Shown: positions 2,159 to 9,149 of the stretch, piece by piece | How positions within the stretch are numbered: the first letter of the stretch is position 1 | How the letters are laid out: each line of letters begins with the position of its first letter | Origin: Halalkalibacterium halodurans | GTDB lineage: Bacteria > Bacillota > Bacilli > Bacillales > Bacillaceae_D | Assembly: GCF_004376175.1 (NCBI RefSeq) | Contig: NZ_SNUY01000083.1 | Span: 1 to 9,149 of the forward strand | Length of the DNA stretch: 9,149 nt | Direction of reading: 5' to 3' | Notes under the pieces: model-generated | Databases searched by the model: none | Seen by the model: only the letters and a program-made list of their open reading frames with translations | What the model was told of the DNA's origin: nothing | Translations under genes and position numbers: made by a program

Positions 2159-4177
2159 CTACCGCTTTACGATCATCACTCCATAAGCCTCCAATGAGGT
2201 AGCCCCTGTTAATTCCTTCCCTGTTAACAGGTCAGTTCCTTCGCCTATTTCCAATTCTACTGTAGATGCATTGTGGTTCATGATAAAAAAGTAAGAAGCG
2301 CCGTCCTTTCGTCTCTCCGTCACTTCCACGCCTTTTGGAACATTCAATAATGGAGCGATTTCCTTTTCCGCACAAACCGTCTTCATGAAATCCGTTAAAA
2401 AGGCTTGATCAGGGCATGTTCCTACGTAATACGCTTTTCCTTTTCCATAAGCATGACGCGTAATGACGGGTGTACCTGCATAAAAATCAGAGCCATATTC
2501 AGCCAGCACGTCTGCACCCTCTGAATGAATAATATCAAATAACAACCGGCACTCATAGGTACCTGTTAGACTACCGGTATCATTTGTTATCACAATCTGA
2601 TTTTTTACTTCAGGTGGCAGAGCATCGATTTCCTCTACCCATATTCCAAGGAGATCTCTTAGTTCGCCTGGATAACCGCCAAGAGTGACAAGATCATGCT
2701 CATTCACGATTCCACTAAAGAACGTTGTCACAAACGTTCCCCCATTTTGAACAAACTCTTTTACACGATCGGCATACCCTGATTTCACCATATACAATAC
2801 AGGAGCAATGACAATTTCATACTTGCTTAAATCCTCATCGACTCCAATCATGTCGACCGGGATATTTTCATCAAATAAGGCGGCGTAATAGTTGTGAACT
2901 TCTTTTACATAATCCAATGCCTTGGATGGGCCGCTTGATAGCTCCGTCGCCCAGCGATTTTCCCAGTCAAACACGATCGCCACCTTCGCTTGCACACGTG
3001 CATCGAGCAATGCATCGGAAAGGTTGCCCAACTCCTTGCCAAGTGCAGCCGTCTCTCGGAATACCCTTGTATTCTCATGACCCACATGCTCGATGACGGC
3101 TCCATGGTATTTTTCACAAGCTCCAACCGATCGCCTCAATTGAAAAAACATCACTGTATCTGCCCCACGGGCCACCGCTTGATAGCTCCATAAGCGCATC
3201 ACACCCGGGCGTTTCAACGAATTATAAGGCTGCCAATTTTGCTGGCTTGGCGTCTGCTCCATCAGCATAAATGGCTGTCCGCTTTTTAAGCCTCTCATAA
3301 GATCGTGAGCCATCGCCGTAAAGCTTACAGGCGTATCATACGCAGGGTAGTTGTCCCATGACACGACATCCATTTCCTTACCCCATTTAAAATAATCCAG
3401 CTCTTTATACGTACCCATTAGATTCGTTGTTACTGGAAGGTTAGGCGTATGTTTTTTCAACGCGTCCCTCTCAAGTTTAAAGCACTCTAGTAAGCTATCG
3501 GACTGAAAAATGCGATAATCTAAAGAGATGCCTTGGAAATTCGTAGAATCCCCCTCCCATTCTTCACTTAACGCATTCGGAGGGACAATTTCATCCCAAT
3601 CATAAAACGTATGCCCCCAAAAGCGAGTGTTCCATTCTTTATTGACATTTTGTAAAGTCCCGTACTTTTGCTGGAGCCATTTTCGAAAGCTGGCAGCACA
3701 GTTGTCACAATAACAATAGCCACCATATTCATTGGACACATGCCAAATTAATACGCCAGGATGATCCTTATATCTTTCACCTAATCGATCGGCCATCCGT
3801 TCTGCATACTTTCGATACGTTGGGCTGTTCGGGCAAGAATTGTGCCTGCCGCCAAATGCACGTTTTCTCCCTTGATAATCAACCCTTAGGACGTCTGGAT
3901 ACTTTTTTGCCATCCACGCAGGATGTGCCGCTGTACTCGTGGCCAAACAAGTATAAATTCCGTTTTCATACAACCGATCAATTTGCTCATCCAGCCAAGT
4001 AAAATCATAGGTTTCTTCATCAGGCTGATTTAACGCCCATGAAAAAACATTTAATGTGGCCACATCAATTCCTGCTAGTTTAAACATACGGATATCTTCG
4101 TCCCAGACCTCTTTCTCCCACTGCTCCGGATTATAATCTCCACCATACCAAATTTTTGGTAGCTTTTCGTTGATCAT
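2159..4177 (-). CDS. Beta-galactosidase, glycoside hydrolase family 42
   Basis: 672 aa. N-terminus is YGGDYNPEQW. The acid/base motif is HVSNEYGG and the nucleophile motif is FMLMEQTPS. The GH42 zinc-cysteine cluster is present (NSCPNSP ... YCYCDNC). It is collinear with the remembered Geobacillus BgaB sequence through the trimerisation and C-terminal domains. The RBS GGTGA lies upstream of ATG 4177. Confidence 0.93.
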   Translation of the reverse strand: MINEKLPKIWYGGDYNPEQWEKEVWDEDIRMFKLAGIDVATLNVFSWALNQPDEETYDFTWLDEQIDRLYENGIYTCLATSTAAHPAWMAKKYPDVLRVDYQGRKRAFGGRHNSCPNSPTYRKYAERMADRLGERYKDHPGVLIWHVSNEYGGYCYCDNCAASFRKWLQQKYGTLQNVNKEWNTRFWGHTFYDWDEIVPPNALSEEWEGDSTNFQGISLDYRIFQSDSLLECFKLERDALKKHTPNLPVTTNLMGTYKELDYFKWGKEMDVVSWDNYPAYDTPVSFTAMAHDLMRGLKSGQPFMLMEQTPSQQNWQPYNSLKRPGVMRLWSYQAVARGADTVMFFQLRRSVGACEKYHGAVIEHVGHENTRVFRETAALGKELGNLSDALLDARVQAKVAIVFDWENRWATELSSGPSKALDYVKEVHNYYAALFDENIPVDMIGVDEDLSKYEIVIAPVLYMVKSGYADRVKEFVQNGGTFVTTFFSGIVNEHDLVTLGGYPGELRDLLGIWVEEIDALPPEVKNQIVITNDTGSLTGTYECRLLFDIIHSEGADVLAEYGSDFYAGTPVITRHAYGKGKAYYVGTCPDQAFLTDFMKTVCAEKEIAPLLNVPKGVEVTERRKDGASYFFIMNHNASTVELEIGEGTDLLTGKELTGATSLEAYGVMIVKR

Positions 4178-4202
4178 ATCCTATCACCTTTTCCTTTGTA
4201 TC

Positions 4203-4253
4203 ATAATAATTACATTGTATGCGATTACAAAGCGGGATTATATATAATATAAT
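4203..4253. promoter_or_regulatory. Back-to-back divergent sigma-A-type promoters for the GH42 gene and the AraC-family gene, sharing one -35 position
   Basis: Plus strand: TTACAA 4225-4230, 17-nt spacer, TATAAT 4248-4253. Minus strand: TTGTAA (same bases 4230-4225), 16-nt spacer, TATTAT 4208-4203. This is hexamer matching only. Confidence 0.35.
4216..4229. promoter_or_regulatory. cre-like (CcpA) catabolite-responsive element
   Basis: TGTATGCGATTACA has 2 mismatches to the palindromic cre core TGTAAGCGCTTACA and 1 mismatch to the degenerate WTGNAANCGNWNNCW. It overlaps the shared -35 and spacer of the divergent promoters. Confidence 0.4.
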
Positions 4254-4311
4254 AGAAAGAGATATAAAAATAAGGAACTCTTTATTGATTGCTTGGAGGG
4301 AAGGGGTCCCA

Positions 4312-5151
4312 ATGAAAAAACACGTTCTCATCCCATTAAATGAAAATAAACTACCCCTTTTCGCTGAAACGATTGGGTTTAATCCTGTACAAGAATATGT
4401 CACACGGCCAAATGGCTACCCTTATTACCATTGGATTCAAACAGTGAGCGGACAAGGCTCCATCATGTTTCAAAATAGACAGATCAACTTGACGACGAAT
4501 AACGGGGTCCTCCTCCTGCCACATATCCCCCACTCGTATCAAAACGCGCAAAGTGATTCCACTCCATGGCAAACACTGTATGTAACCTTTAGCGGGACGA
4601 TGGTGAAAGAGGTGTTGATTACACTGGAACTGTATCAATCTGCTTTTTTTCACTGGAATCAAGAAGCTCCGATATCCACATTCCTTGCGAAAGTATTGAA
4701 ACAAAGCGACGAAACAAGAGACAGCTTTAGCATCAGTGCCTCTTCTGCGGTCTATGAATTCCTTCTGCTTTTAAAAAAGTATGGAAAAACGAATAATAGC
4801 AACGCAAAAGAGACGAATCACTTAGTGCGGTTATATTCACTGATTGATTGGATGAAGACTCAACTTTCCAACCCAGATGTAGGCCTTGATGAAATGGCAC
4901 GCTTTATTAATACGTCCAAACGCCATTTGAATTCGCTGTTCCAAAAGAACTTCCACTTGACGCCCTATGCCTATTTTGTTAATTTGCGAATCCAACAATC
5001 AAAAAAGCTCTTATTAGAAGACAACTGTGCCACCATCGGTGAGATTGCCAAGCAAGTGGGGTTTCGCTCGACAAGCCACTTTGTCGCCACTTTCAGGAAG
5101 ATGGTCGGCATCCCTCCGGAAAAATACCGTCAGCTCAATGGAGGGGTTTGA
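4312..5151 (+). CDS. AraC/XylS-family transcriptional regulator (cupin-like sensor domain plus C-terminal double HTH)
   Basis: The C-terminus LDEMARFINTSKRHLNSLFQKNFHLTPYAYFVNLRIQQSKKLL...IGEIAKQVGFRSTSHFVATFRKMVGIPPEKYR is a canonical AraC HTH pair. Start chosen at ATG 4312 (MKKHVLIPL...), which has the RBS GGAGGGAAGGGG. The track's 4219 start lies in AT-rich promoter DNA. Confidence 0.85.
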   Translation: MKKHVLIPLNENKLPLFAETIGFNPVQEYVTRPNGYPYYHWIQTVSGQGSIMFQNRQINLTTNNGVLLLPHIPHSYQNAQSDSTPWQTLYVTFSGTMVKEVLITLELYQSAFFHWNQEAPISTFLAKVLKQSDETRDSFSISASSAVYEFLLLLKKYGKTNNSNAKETNHLVRLYSLIDWMKTQLSNPDVGLDEMARFINTSKRHLNSLFQKNFHLTPYAYFVNLRIQQSKKLLLEDNCATIGEIAKQVGFRSTSHFVATFRKMVGIPPEKYRQLNGGV

Positions 5152-5200: not shown

Positions 5201-5238
5201 CAAAAAAGAAACGGCGAATCCCATCGTGCGGACTCGCC
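5201..5238 (-). terminator. Intrinsic terminator, minus strand
   Basis: Minus-strand RNA: GGCGAGTCC (5238-5230), 8-nt loop, GGATTCGCC (5221-5213). This gives a 9-bp stem with one G-U, followed by GTTTCTTTTTTG (5212-5201). Confidence 0.5.
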
Positions 5239-5335
5239 ATCTAATTTACATGTACTTATCGAAGCCTATACGAGTTTTCAGCCGTATAGTATTTCCAATC
5301 CCAGAATATGTTCCCCTGTGCGAGAATGATAAGCT

Positions 5336-5524
5336 CTAACCATAGTTCGAAATTCCTGTTAAGGAAGTATAGATAGTTTGAGCTTTTGCTTCATCAAATG
5401 TCATGTCTAAATACTTACAGACAGTCGGTCTTGAAACTTTCAGCTCCTTAGCGATTTGTGCTACTTTAAACTTTCTCTTACGTAATTCATGGATCTTTAC
5501 ATATAAAACTAACTTCTCCTCCAA
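5336..5524 (-). CDS. Small HTH protein; most likely the N-terminal remnant of an IS21-family IstA-type transposase
   Basis: 62 aa with a TTG start. [35 protein letters not shown] resembles the N-terminal HTH of IS21-family transposases (pattern ...S.reIAk.l.iSRnTVrKYL). No transposase catalytic region follows in any frame. Confidence 0.5.
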
Positions 5525-5641
5525 AACCCTAACCCCCAGTAAAATAACATTACTATCTATTTTACTAAAGTAGTAGGTTGATTGAGCAAAAGTGTAAAAT
5601 CTTATCGAGCAAAAACTGTCAACTTCATTCTAGCGTTTACA
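5525..5641 (-). mobile_element. Putative IS21-like left end (terminal TG plus repeated subterminal motif)
   Basis: Read on the minus strand from 5641, the sequence starts TGTAAACGCTAG.... Two copies of ACA-N-TTTTGCTC(G/A)AT follow (plus-strand coordinates 5604-5619 and 5581-5595). They sit just upstream of the HTH ORF, as expected for multiple IstA-binding repeats. The end position is a guess. Confidence 0.3.
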
Positions 5642-5661: not shown

Positions 5662-5793
5662 TTAAATGCCAGCGATGGGCTTCTCAAGAATTGTAAATCC
5701 GTCTCCTGCGGTGTAGCTACTATTCAAAACCTGTGAACCAACAAAGCCAAAAATGAAACTTGCTGCAATGAGAGTTAAAAAGACACTTTTCAT
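5662..5793 (-). CDS. phr: Phr-like secreted signalling pre-peptide, orphan copy (phr2), 43 aa
   Basis: Not in the ORF track (<60 aa). Translation: MKSVFLTLIAASFIFGFVGSQVLNSSYTAGDGFTILEKPIAGI. It has a hydrophobic signal sequence, a GAGGAGG RBS, and an ATG overlapping the stop of the rap stump (ATGA). It is a paralogue of the phr at 6072-6206. Confidence 0.6.
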   Translation of the reverse strand: MKSVFLTLIAASFIFGFVGSQVLNSSYTAGDGFTILEKPIAGI

Positions 5794-5907
5794 GCGCCCC
5801 CTACCTCCTCATATAAAGATGGAATTTTTTGTTGGGCGTTTAACCCTTCCTCGTAATATTTCGACGCCAATTGATAGATGCCTTTTTTAAAATGCTAAAT
5901 TTCTTAC
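5790..5907 (-). pseudogene. 3'-terminal stump of a deleted rap paralogue
   Basis: Bases 5790-5888 read HFKKGIYQLASKYYEEGLNAQQKIPSLYEEVGGA-stop, against the intact Rap tail FYKKEGFYQLASKYYEEGLNAQQKIPSLYEEVGSA. There is an in-frame TAG at 5889-5891, and DNA similarity fades by about 5907. Confidence 0.8.
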
Positions 5908-5979
5908 AAATTTTACATACCTAAAAATCAAAATGAGATAAGGGTAAATGGTGGGCATTTATCTGTCATTCAAATTGGA

Positions 5980-6011
5980 AACAAAAAAATTACCCCGTGT
6001 ATCTCACGGGG
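5980..6011 (-). terminator. Intrinsic terminator of the rap-phr operon
   Basis: Minus strand: CCCCGTG (6011-6005), 5-nt loop, CACGGGG (5999-5993), then TAATTTTTTTGTTTCC. It lies 60 nt after the phr stop. Confidence 0.7.
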
Positions 6012-6071
6012 CTATCTAAGCTTGTACAAGTTGCTAATGCTTCCATTTTGACCAAGATGAAATACAATTAA

Positions 6072-6206
6072 TTAAAATCCACCTATTCTAGGCTTTTCAA
6101 GAGTGGTGAAGCCGTCTCCTGAGCTACATTGACTTTGCAGTTCTTGAGGGTTAGCAAAACTGAACAACAAACTTGCTACAATGATAGTTAAAAAGACACT
6201 TTTCAT
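6072..6206 (-). CDS. phr: Phr signalling pre-peptide cognate to the adjacent Rap (phr1), 44 aa
   Basis: Not in the ORF track. Translation: MKSVFLTIIVASLLFSFANPQELQSQCSSGDGFTTLEKPRIGGF. ATG 6206-6204 overlaps the rap TGA 6205-6203 (ATGA). It has a signal-peptide-like N-terminus and the classic rap-phr gene order. Confidence 0.8.
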   Translation of the reverse strand: MKSVFLTIIVASLLFSFANPQELQSQCSSGDGFTTLEKPRIGGF

Positions 6207-7318
6207 GCGCTCCCTACCTCCTCATATAAAGATGGAATTTTTTGTTGGGCATTTAGCCCTTCTTCGTAATATTTCGACGCCAATTGATAAAATCCTTCTT
6301 TTTTGTAAAAACGAGCCGCGTTAAATGCCAAATCTTCGACATCATGCCACAAACTTTGCTCTTTCAACACTTTTAGCCCTTCATCAATCGACAATTCTTT
6401 TTGGTCAAAATAAACAGCGTGAATAATTTCGAGCTTTACTTGATAGATTTTGTCGTTTGTTTCGTTTGCCAGTTGTACTGCATCCTCAAACCATTTTACT
6501 CCCTCTTGTAAGAATCCCATTTTAAATAAAACTCTGCCTAACATATATTTAATTCTTAAATAAGTTTCTTTTTTATTTTCTTGTGGAAAATCAAAATCAA
6601 GTGCCTTTTCAAAACAATCCCTAGCTAGTTCGAGTTTCTCTTGCACCTCATAACAGAGGCCTAAATTATAGTAACCGAGTAATTCGATAAATGTTTGATT
6701 AGAGTCTACTGCAATAAGAATCGCCTTTTTATACAACTTTTCAGCCGCAAGATATTGATTTAAATCTAATTTATTTGCCGCAATGATCATTTGAGTTAAT
6801 GCGATTCTACTTACATAGTTCTCTTGCTTTAAATAAATATCTAATGCTTTTTCTGCATGGTTTATCGAAAAGAAATTTTGATCTATACTTTGATAGGCAA
6901 CTGCAAGTTGAAAATGAAATTCAGCGTGTTCGATTTCGTCTGGAATCGTAGTGAGATGATTTTCTGCCTTATGATAAAGACGTATGGCATGGGTGAAGTT
7001 ATTCATGTTGAATTCATAGAGGCCACTAAAAAAGTAGTAATAATACTGTAGAAGGTTGTCTGTATCTGCTCTCTCCGTCTGATCCTTAAGGCTTTCCAAA
7101 ATGGTGCCCGATTCATCATATTGCTCGAGTAATAGCTTGTACCTTGAGTCAATCAAGTTGTAATACAGTAGGACATTTTGATCTTCCTCCATGTCATCCA
7201 TGGCTTTCTGAAGATCGTGTTTCATGATCGCCGCTTTTTTTATGTCTTGACGCTTGATGGTGTCATACCATTCATTTAGCCTGTTGGCTACTTCACTACT
7301 AGCAACTCTTTCAACCAT
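6203..7318 (-). CDS. rap: Rap-family response-regulator aspartate phosphatase / TPR quorum-sensing receptor (RRNPP family)
   Basis: 371 aa with no N-terminal HTH. It is collinear with remembered B. subtilis RapA motifs: NEWY, DMEEDQ-LLYY, YYYFF-G-YEF, Y-KAE, D-IE-AEF-F, YNLG-CYE, and a C-terminal ...YYEEGL-AQ-KI. The RBS GGGAGGGG lies 7 nt before ATG 7318. Confidence 0.92.
   Translation of the reverse strand: MVERVASSEVANRLNEWYDTIKRQDIKKAAIMKHDLQKAMDDMEEDQNVLLYYNLIDSRYKLLLEQYDESGTILESLKDQTERADTDNLLQYYYYFFSGLYEFNMNNFTHAIRLYHKAENHLTTIPDEIEHAEFHFQLAVAYQSIDQNFFSINHAEKALDIYLKQENYVSRIALTQMIIAANKLDLNQYLAAEKLYKKAILIAVDSNQTFIELLGYYNLGLCYEVQEKLELARDCFEKALDFDFPQENKKETYLRIKYMLGRVLFKMGFLQEGVKWFEDAVQLANETNDKIYQVKLEIIHAVYFDQKELSIDEGLKVLKEQSLWHDVEDLAFNAARFYKKEGFYQLASKYYEEGLNAQQKIPSLYEEVGSA
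6270..6300 (-). promoter_or_regulatory. Sigma-H-like internal promoter for phr1 inside the rap 3' end (tentative)
   Basis: Minus strand: GAAGGATTT (6298-6290) fits RNAGGAWWW. After 11 nt, GTCGAAA fits RNNGAAT except at the last base. B. subtilis phr genes commonly have sigma-H promoters inside rap. Confidence 0.3.
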
Positions 7319-7671: not shown

Positions 7672-8280
7672 GTGAAACTACGCCAACAGTTTCACAGGAG
7701 ACGTCCACCCCAAAAAAGATTATGGTCATTATATCAAATTATTCCTTGGTTGAGAAGCAATCTGGCGTTTTTTGTTAGAAGTACGGAACGAATCCCCTGC
7801 CCTTGTTGTGGAGGAACACTTTCAGTGGCAGGAAGCCGGAAACGTGCATGGTATAAAAGCAGTGGCGAGCGCTCCAGGCTTGTGATTCGAAGGCTATATT
7901 GTGAGGCATGCGATAAGATTCATCATGAACTCCCTGATATTCTTGTGCCTTATAAAAGGTATGATGCGGAGAGTATAGAAGGTACCGTTTCTACACCACC
8001 ACGTACAGAGGCAGCGGTGGATGAAGCAACCATCTTTCGATGGAAGAACTGGTTTCAGGTGTGGGTGGCGTATGCCATCGGCTGCCTCCGGTCTATCGCG
8101 ATACGTTTTGATCTGCCTGTGGAGGAATTGTCCGAATCTCCACAAACCGTACTTCACTCCCTGGGACAATATGTAGGTATGGAGGAGGGATGGCTGAAGA
8201 GAGCTGTCCGTTCCATGACAAATTTAAATCTTTGGGTCACAGACCCGTTCCGCATTTCTGGCCGGACTGCTCTGGAGTAA
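7672..8280 (+). CDS. Zinc-ribbon transposon accessory protein, DUF6431-like
   Basis: CPCCGG-17 residues-GERSRLVIRRLYCEACDKIHHELPDILVPYKRY matches the remembered DUF6431 pattern (CPxC...R..C..C...LP..L.PY..Y). This domain is typically encoded just upstream of DDE integrase-type transposases in Firmicutes. The GTG start is uncertain. Confidence 0.65.
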   Translation: MKLRQQFHRRRPPQKRLWSLYQIIPWLRSNLAFFVRSTERIPCPCCGGTLSVAGSRKRAWYKSSGERSRLVIRRLYCEACDKIHHELPDILVPYKRYDAESIEGTVSTPPRTEAAVDEATIFRWKNWFQVWVAYAIGCLRSIAIRFDLPVEELSESPQTVLHSLGQYVGMEEGWLKRAVRSMTNLNLWVTDPFRISGRTALE

Positions 8281-8316
8281 ACTCATGCTATACCAATGAA
8301 TGGGAGGCATGAGAAG

Positions 8317-9149
8317 ATGAAAAGTCAACGGAAAGCGGAAGAAACAGCCGCGGAACGTATGCAGTTAATCTCCCCTCTTTTGGCGGAGGGGTTGGATGCT
8401 GGCAAAGCAAGGAAAATCAAGGCTGATATCTGTGAAAGAGCAGGTGTTTCGGAAAGGACCATCCGCCGGTATCTTTCCCAGTACCGTAACGAAGGGTTCG
8501 AAGGCTTAAAGCCGAAGGAAAAAGGAAGAAAACCTGCCAGGACAGGGATCCCTCCTGCTTTACTGGAGGAGGCTATCCTTTTGAGGAGGGAGGTTCCGGG
8601 GCGGAGTGTCAGCCAGATCATTCAGATTCTTGAGTGGGAAGGAAAGGCAGAGCCGGGAGAATTAAAAAGGAGTACGCTCCAGGAAAAACTGGCTGAACGG
8701 GGCTACAGTTCCCGGCAAATGCGGATGTATACAAGCAGTGGAGTTGCCGCAAGAAGATTTCAAAGAAGGTACCGGAACAGCCTTTGGCAGTCTGATATCA
8801 AGTATGGCCCCTTTCTACCGATTGGTCCCAACGGGACCAATAAGCAGGTATACCTAGTCTTGTTTATTGATGACGCCACAAGATATGTTCTTCATGGTGA
8901 GTGGTATCCCACACTGGATCAGTCCATTGTCGAAGACTGCTTCCGTAAAGCGATACAAAAGGCGGGACTGCCTGAGGCCGTCTACTTTGATAACGGAAAA
9001 CAGTACCGGACGAAGTGGATGGGGCGAACCTGTTCTAAACTGGGTATCCGTTTATTATACGCAAAGCCGTACTCACCTGATTCGAAAGGGAAGGTGGAAA
9101 AGTTTAATAGGAACGTTCAGGCCTTTATGGATGAAGCAATGTTGGAAAA
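8317..9149 (+). CDS. Mu/Tn552-like DDE transposase (HTH plus rve core), 3' end outside the window
   Basis: Not in the ORF track because there is no stop in the window. ATG 8317 has the RBS GGGAGG 9 nt upstream. N-terminal HTH: ICERAGVSERTIRRYLSQYRNEGFEGLKPK. DDE core: WQSDIKY (D), LVLFIDDATRY, VYFDNGKQY (D), YSPDSKGKVEKFNR (E). Confidence 0.85.
   Translation, partial: MKSQRKAEETAAERMQLISPLLAEGLDAGKARKIKADICERAGVSERTIRRYLSQYRNEGFEGLKPKEKGRKPARTGIPPALLEEAILLRREVPGRSVSQIIQILEWEGKAEPGELKRSTLQEKLAERGYSSRQMRMYTSSGVAARRFQRRYRNSLWQSDIKYGPFLPIGPNGTNKQVYLVLFIDDATRYVLHGEWYPTLDQSIVEDCFRKAIQKAGLPEAVYFDNGKQYRTKWMGRTCSKLGIRLLYAKPYSPDSKGKVEKFNRNVQAFMDEAMLE

Follow-up and report, generated by a model that had tools for sequence, protein, structure and literature searches.

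A second phr gene without a receptor gene of its own in Halalkalibacterium halodurans is probably one unit of a strain-variable array of phr cassettes

We analysed a 9,149-nucleotide stretch of DNA from Halalkalibacterium halodurans (contig NZ_SNUY01000083.1 of assembly GCF_004376175.1, hereafter the window), in which a single rap gene is followed on the minus strand by two phr genes, the second of them standing behind a short copy of the rap 3' end. Based on the anatomy of the locus and its comparison among strains, we suggest that this second gene, phr2, is live and belongs to a tandem array of self-contained phr cassettes that varies between strains, and we put the probability of this reading at about 0.6. 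Each cassette would consist of a copy of about 100 nt of the rap 3' end (with the ribosome-binding site for phr and probably an internal promoter for it), the phr open reading frame (ORF) and an intrinsic terminator. The anatomy points to the duplication of a segment of about 0.35-0.4 kb that begins within the 3' end of rap and stops shortly after the terminator. The array would have been re-amplified later, giving three units in one strain, and the units may have swapped their variable middle and C-terminal modules by recombination, with the conserved stump and 5' part of phr as one arm and the terminator as the other. The architecture of the array, its polymorphism and its mosaicism are observed directly.

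The only rap gene at the locus lies at 6203-7318 on the minus strand and encodes a Rap-family receptor/phosphatase of 371 amino acids. The protein matches Pfam RapH_N (E=4e-25) and TPR_12/TPR_2, that is, an N-terminal three-helix bundle with a TPR receptor region, and it aligns over its full length with the solved structures of Rap3T, RapI, RapJ, RapF and RapH in a phmmer search. An identical protein is present in Halalkalibacterium (Bacillus) halodurans genomes. Directly downstream on the same strand is phr1 (6072-6206, minus strand), a short pro-peptide ORF placed as in Rap-Phr (RRNPP) systems, whose ATG overlaps the rap stop codon (ATGA) and whose 44-residue product has the C-terminus EKPRIGGF. 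This C-terminus is found in the first position in every strain that has the window Rap allele, and Phr1 is presumed to be the cognate signal of the window Rap. The pair is closed by an intrinsic terminator (5982-6012, minus strand; stem 5992-6012 and a T run) with an 8-bp stem containing 6 G-C pairs, followed by AATTTTTTTG. A terminator of this type is found after every cassette in the strains with intact arrays.

In Rap-Phr systems, the pro-peptide is processed to a peptide of 5-6 residues, which is imported by Opp and binds to the TPR domain of Rap; the peptide is ERPVGT for RapK-PhrK and EKMIG for RapG-PhrG. The window resembles the canonical Rap-Phr units of the B. subtilis group in its RapH_N and TPR receptor, in the overlapping downstream phr with a signal-bearing pro-peptide of about 44 residues, and in a C-terminal peptide with an acidic-basic start (E-K/R-P...). 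It differs from them in that they have one phr per rap and the window has two.

The second cassette is separated from the first terminator by a spacer (5895-5981, minus strand; about 95 nt from the terminator to the stump) with an in-frame TAG at 5895-5897. The stump itself (5794 to about 5894, minus strand) is a copy of about 100 nt of rap, corresponding to codons ~338-371, and it stands in the same register with phr2 as the rap tail does with phr1. The phr2 gene (5662-5793, minus strand) is an uninterrupted 43-codon ORF for a pro-peptide of 43 residues, MKSVFLTLIAASFIFGFVGSQVLNSSYTAGDGFTILEKPIAGI, whose product is annotated as hypothetical protein WP_276399900.1. Its Shine-Dalgarno (SD) sequence GAGGAGG is located inside the stump at 5804-5810, and stop and start codons still overlap as ATGA. 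These features, and the terminator between the two copies, confirm the description in an earlier note made from the DNA of the window, and its central observation of a separately terminated, intact signal gene without its own receptor gene is borne out. Given the first terminator, it is reasonable to expect that phr2 would not be a simple read-through product, as the note had argued. Several of its boundaries have to be corrected: the TAG had been placed at 5889-5891; the stump, described as having 32 codons, is open for 34; and the homology to rap, said to be lost by about 5907, is firm only as far as about 5888-5894, beyond which a weaker stretch to about 5911 needs a 20-nt gap and is insignificant alone.

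When we searched the window for repeats, positions 5678-5888 were paired with 6091-6301 (81% identity over 211 nt, spacing 413), and the alignment agreed. The repeat is real and well above chance, and the identity between its copies is very uneven along the length: 78/82 in the stump from ATCAATTGG to the phr ATG, 36/39 in phr codons 1-13, 34/60 in codons 14-33 and 25/36 in the remaining 3' end. The four differences between stump and rap listed in the earlier note (GAA/GAG, CTA/TTA, AAT/AAC and AGC/GGC) are correct, and its ratio of three synonymous changes to one non-synonymous change holds for the 28 codons chosen. It does not hold beyond them, since more differences, some of them non-synonymous (KEGFY to KKGIY), are found in the six codons at the upstream end of the stump. 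At the protein level, Phr1 and Phr2 both begin with MK followed by about 17 hydrophobic residues, an N-terminus that is signal-peptide-like as judged by inspection, and they have a common E-K-P core with only the following residues differing. A homology search with the single Phr2 sequence returned no match besides Phr2 itself, a DNA-pattern scan of metagenomes for the stump returned no match, and an Rfam scan of the window returned no RNA family. The NCBIfam search with both Phr sequences gave no meaningful match; a sub-threshold AimP-family resemblance concerned the signal peptide only.

We then compared eight strains or alleles of the rap locus, which is a limited sampling. The locus order in complete genomes is a vanZ-like gene, rap, the phr array and an LXG toxin gene, and in each strain or allele examined, one rap precedes an array of two or three stump-phr-terminator cassettes. 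Strain C-125 (BA000004.3, L013), CP040441.1 (L001) and GCA_001274915.2 have the same Rap allele as the window and carry EKPRIGGF and EKPIAGI, each cassette with its terminator. The same two peptides are encoded behind an identical Rap protein in GCA_036223865.1 and a Logan assembly (L002/L003), where the end of an IS21-family element lies at the nucleotide at which the window has its insertion. In GCA_036223705.1 (L094), the Rap differs from that of the window by 2 amino acids and the peptides are EKPRIGGF and EKPHFGN, and in GCA_034259345.1 (L012), the Rap differs by 22 amino acids and three cassettes, again each with a terminator, encode QQKPRIGGF, EKPHFGN and EKPNVGGN. The metagenome allele L008 has a Rap with 66 differences, all within residues 61-270, that is, a diverged TPR region; its first phr encodes EKPHFGN, and the contig ends in the spacer. 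At least two homologous phr genes thus stand behind a single rap (two in the window, C-125 and L094, three in L012), and their autoinducer-coding ends have diverged into EKPRIGGF, EKPIAGI, EKPHFGN and EKPNVGGN.

The junction between spacer and stump is identical in all downstream cassettes of all strains. Units 2 and 3 of L012, spaced 359 nt apart, are 88% identical over 300 nt, spacer included. The phr genes themselves are mosaic. In the window phr2, the middle corresponds to cassette 3 of L012 (53/60) and the C-terminus EKPIAGI to phr2 of C-125; cassette 2 of L012 equals the first phr of L008 across the pro-region (60/60 and 18/18 nt); and phr1 and phr2 of C-125 are identical at 58/60 positions in the middle and at only 22/36 at the 3' end. 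In L002/L003, a 1-nt deletion breaks the rap frame of the stump and phr2 is intact. The short-read Logan contigs L005, L006 and L007 break in or just before the second stump, and cassette number will be under-reported in draft genomes because the repeat collapses or interrupts short-read assemblies. The intact phr2 of C-125 (L013 5412-5543) is absent from the called genes of the BA000004.3 record as used here.

The array is located in an IS-rich, rearranged region. On the minus strand of the window, the end of an IS21-family element (5382-5641), 99% identical to the IS21 copy in L001, starts 20 nt past the phr2 stop codon, within the sequence that serves intact strains as the phr2 terminator; L001 and L013 show the intact site. 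The terminator of the window phr2 has therefore been destroyed by the insertion, which counts against its reading as a live cassette. A truncated istA ORF of 62 codons (5336-5524), with matches to a helix-turn-helix (HTH), is joined to an AraC/GH42 region, and because of this truncation and joining, the LXG-toxin neighbourhood of the other strains is absent from the window. Two independent IS21-family insertions are found at the same nucleotide of the phr2 terminator stem, in the window and in L002/L003 (about 2031 in L002), in opposite orientations, with the istA-proximal end in the window and the istB-proximal end in L002/L003. With a slash marking the junction, they read ...AGTCGG/TGTAAACG and ...AGTTGG/TGTAACCG, and the intact site reads ...AGTTGG/CCTCGTGAGATTCACGGGG (about 7672-7700 in L001); this suggests that IS21-family elements may prefer the phr2 terminator hairpin as a target. 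In CP040441.1, the same IS21-type element is inserted in the Shine-Dalgarno region of rap (L001 3495-3510 and 5985-6001), with the junctions AAAGGGAGGGG/TGTAGACG ... GCGTTTACA/AGGGGTTCCGATG and a 5-bp AGGGG duplication. It parts rap from its promoter by about 2.4 kb, and this strain might express its phr genes even if rap is not expressed. Upstream of rap, the window has a DUF6431 ORF of 202 amino acids (7672-8280, plus strand; E=8e-29), and its ends (8300-9149 and 190-354) hold many short overlapping ORFs and a transposase-like fragment.

When we examined the downstream cassettes for decay, 9/9 were found to keep the SD, the ATG, an ORF of 43-44 codons and a signal-peptide-like N-terminus, and neither loss of start or ribosome-binding site nor a frameshift or premature stop was found among these nine. 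In the pro-region, pS and pN were 0.72 and 0.24 between phr1 and phr2 of the window, 0.47 and 0.21 between the phr2 genes of the window and C-125, and 0.51 and 0.32 between cassettes 2 and 3 of L012. The comparison of phr2 between C-125 and L002 counts against maintenance, with 0 synonymous and 5 non-synonymous changes. Taken together, the excess of pS over pN, the intact ORFs and the intact phr2 beside a broken stump frame are signs that the downstream cassettes may be maintained, and the first two could also stem from time spent in the first position in other alleles, followed by recent recombination.

It is established that phr is often served by an internal promoter within rap (PMC5199041; PMC7641744 citing McQuade 2001). 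A scan for sigma-70-type promoters between the first terminator and phr2 predicted none. The sigma-H consensus is AGGAWWW-N14/15-GAAT. The rap tail contains the sigma-H-like boxes AGGATTT-N14-GAAAT and the stump contains AGGCATC-N14-GAAAT at 5858-5883, which is a resemblance only, and the stump motif departs from this consensus in both boxes (AGGC for AGGA and GAAA for GAAT). The strict motif showed no enrichment at the rap 3' ends of 75 Rap genes, and good sigma-H-like matches are scattered at -124 to -151 in some rap genes of the B. subtilis group.

With regard to origin, the earlier note had taken the stump for the relic of a tandem paralogue, in which a whole rap2-phr2 pair once followed rap1-phr1 and a deletion spared only the last ~34 codons of rap2. 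The stump is indeed a genuine 3' end of rap, and its register with phr2 is correct; paralogue duplication is known in Rap-Phr evolution (PMC5199041). A leftover of the lost gene could also be sought in the spacer, where no source was found for about 65-80 nt and about 16 nt more of rap homology is possible if a 20-nt gap is allowed. However, when the spacer was aligned with rap and 380 nt upstream of it, the best local score was 22, compared with a shuffle mean of 21.5 (sd 2.5), so that no remnant of rap2 is seen there. The full second rap that might have been expected in relatives was found neither in the eight strains or alleles nor, as a second Rap match, inside the fetched flanks of 93 Rap loci. 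For the three-cassette strain, rap would have to have been lost twice, independently and at an identical junction; moreover, units 2 and 3 of this strain are mutual duplicates, spacer included, with no rap between them, and therefore the stump-phr-terminator unit duplicates without any rap. The substitution pattern, which had been read as the trace of a selected, functional rap2, fails when the differences are polarised. Functional rap alleles vary at GAA/GAG and CTA/TTA, and the real rap genes of C-125 and L008 carry the states of the stump; two of the three synonymous differences are thus polymorphisms of functional rap, and the stump is frameshifted in L002/L003. The Ser/Gly difference (AGC/GGC) is private to the window strain. 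Based on these observations, we regard a lost second rap as very unlikely. Duplication of the cassette itself has a weak point in the spacer. Homology between units extends from about rap codon 338 to about 30 nt past the terminator, and the first ~30 nt of the spacer are homologous to the sequence after the last terminator; no source was found for the remaining ~65-80 nt, which indicates that the first event was not a clean tandem duplication and counts against the cassette model. A copy of the sequence after the last terminator was considered for the whole spacer and rejected, since only the first ~30 nt match (z = 0.8-3.1). A recent slippage copy was also rejected, in agreement with the earlier note: pS of 0.5-0.7 in the pro-region indicates that the cassette types are old, though the flanks are about 95% identical.

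Even if the cassettes duplicate as units, phr2 might do nothing, or it might act on the very Rap beside it. In the former case, the downstream cassettes would be neutral leftovers of unequal crossing-over and recombination between alleles, silent behind the terminator and kept intact by gene conversion from phr1 or other alleles. The locus is recombination-prone and rich in IS elements, a strong terminator stands upstream with no clear promoter found, and gene conversion is evident in C-125, where the middles of phr1 and phr2 are nearly identical and the C-termini differ. Furthermore, the content of the second cassette is not tied to the Rap allele, and IS insertions beside phr2 are tolerated in two lineages. 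Nevertheless, all nine downstream cassettes are intact despite pS of up to 0.5 between types (0.7 for phr1 versus phr2), and the part encoding the C-terminal peptide, which lies beyond repair by conversion from phr1, is intact in four versions. The SD and the start codon survive even in cassettes whose stump has lost the rap frame, and a genuine relic in Bacillus inaquosorum, described below, decayed fast. We consider a silent by-product doubtful for these reasons. In the latter case, Phr2 would act on the product of rap (6203-7318) as an extra agonist of other affinity or by competing with Phr1 as an antagonist, in analogy to phage Rap systems, in which duplicated propeptides yield several pheromones. 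Such a role would fit the E-K-P core common to Phr1 and Phr2, which differ only in the following residues, and the binding of duplicated pheromones to one Rap with different affinities, as PMC11343458 describes for Rap3T and Rap105. On the other hand, a Rap with only 2 amino acid differences is paired with EKPHFGN, not with EKPIAGI, in other strains, and RapK2-KR, the one natural case that has been tested (PMC5199041), answered only one of its two encoded peptides. A second ligand for the adjacent Rap therefore appears improbable to us.

If phr2 is a live cassette, as we prefer, its product may be exported by means of the signal sequence, trimmed outside the cell to a short peptide starting from the conserved E-K-P, EKPIA(GI), and re-imported by Opp. 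Because nearly the same Rap and the same Phr1 are accompanied by different second cassettes, it is unlikely that Phr2 has co-evolved with the adjacent Rap as its ligand. A spare signal or one of a foreign pherotype is likelier, since EKPHFGN stands in first position behind a Rap whose TPR region has diverged. Phr2 is better seen as a spare, diverged copy of the signal, an intermediate in the turnover of Rap-Phr specificity of the kind proposed by Even-Tov et al., and other Rap alleles in the population could receive its signal or be disturbed by it; the suggestions of the earlier note of a cross-talk peptide and a snapshot of pherotype turnover remain live ideas. A more far-reaching possibility, which we offer as a tentative and rather unlikely one, is a population-level system of signal cassettes, in which the stump and the terminator would serve as recombination arms for adding, swapping or promoting phr genes, and the extra cassettes would be the cognate signals of other Rap alleles in circulation. 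A deletion between the rap tail and a stump would join the next phr to rap with the frame preserved, and EKPHFGN, encoded by the second cassette in some strains and by the first phr behind the L008 Rap, could be an example. A cell would then broadcast signals that it does not sense itself, manipulating neighbouring pherotypes or proofing itself against their eavesdropping. If this were true, the strain series would present all three stages of the turnover of Rap-Phr specificity in nature.

A long-standing problem in the evolution of quorum sensing is how the specificity of a receptor and its signal can change while the pair stays functional throughout. For Rap-Phr, the published answer is a transiently duplicated phr, supported for the most part by intragenic duplications and by a single trio of RapK2 variants that was tested. 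Even-Tov et al. (2016, PLoS Biol; PMC5199041) also report that whole phr genes have been duplicated, with divergence of their autoinducers, in two B. subtilis subclusters and other bacilli, and they interpret the extra phr as a transient promiscuous intermediate in the divergence of specificity. The cases named in their text are the B. subtilis subclusters, B. clausii and B. cereus (S10C,D and S11 figures); the text, figures apart, makes no mention of the H. halodurans array, and a literature search on orphan phr found no relevant paper. Like the duplications described there, the H. halodurans locus has one rap followed by at least two homologous phr genes with diverged putative autoinducers, and its strain series fits their scheme: RapA+PhrA, RapA+PhrA+PhrB, RapB+PhrB. 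Unlike that kind, each extra phr in H. halodurans stands behind its own terminator with a rap-tail stump of about 100 nt, and copy number (2-3) and content vary between strains with the same Rap. Whole-gene duplication of phr is thus already known, and what differs here is the cassette form, the variable copy number and the swapping of content under a constant Rap. The intragenic pheromone duplications of Rap3T and Rap105 (Felipe-Ruiz et al. 2024, PMC11343458) are similar in providing more than one related peptide per Rap; in those systems, the repeats lie inside one propeptide, whereas H. halodurans has separate genes with separate terminators.

The value of the H. halodurans locus lies mainly in a natural series of putative ancestral, intermediate and derived states, by which the published model becomes directly testable. 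The strains appear to hold an ancestral state (Rap A with EKPRIGGF), apparent intermediates (Rap A with EKPRIGGF plus EKPIAGI, EKPHFGN or EKPNVGGN) and an apparent derived state (a Rap with a diverged TPR region and EKPHFGN as its first phr), and four peptides and two or three Rap alleles would allow a direct test of the turnover model. In addition, a small phr behind a terminator is missed by gene callers, and catalogues built on one phr per rap may therefore list too few signals. Should Phr2 prove silent, the locus would remain a clear case of recombination-driven mosaicism at a pherotype locus, and its wider interest would be limited.

Finally, we surveyed 72 other Rap loci from species-representative genomes. 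Among these, one type has two adjacent phr genes (L030/L031) and one locus has a decayed relic (L054), and otherwise only intragenic repeats were found. The relic is in Bacillus inaquosorum KCTC 13429, where a copy of the rapI tail and phrI with about 95% identity (3950-4300 versus 5230-5560) lies 1.2 kb downstream of rapI-phrI (AADRVGA). As in the window, a copy of the rap 3' end and phr lies downstream of an intact pair with no second rap; the B. inaquosorum copy is a genuine, decayed relic, whereas phr2 of the window is intact. At about 5% divergence, this phrI copy has a 66-nt deletion that removes the ribosome-binding site and start codon and a 1-nt deletion that frameshifts the part encoding DRVGA. 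In L030 (1332-1604, also 1745-1939) and L031, a Bacillus-type rap is followed by two phr genes of 41 and 43 amino acids, 16 nt apart, with no stump and no terminator between them and possibly a third signal-peptide ORF. These small contigs are filed under Paenibacillus, Nocardia, Streptomyces and Pseudarthrobacter 'NPDC' assemblies, and this filing looks like cross-contamination of those assemblies. Long internal tandem repeats within phr were observed in L037 (about 1380-2310, 39-nt units) and in L038/L040 (about 4190-4390, 45-nt units), and these genes would encode autoinducer propeptides with multiple copies of the peptide.
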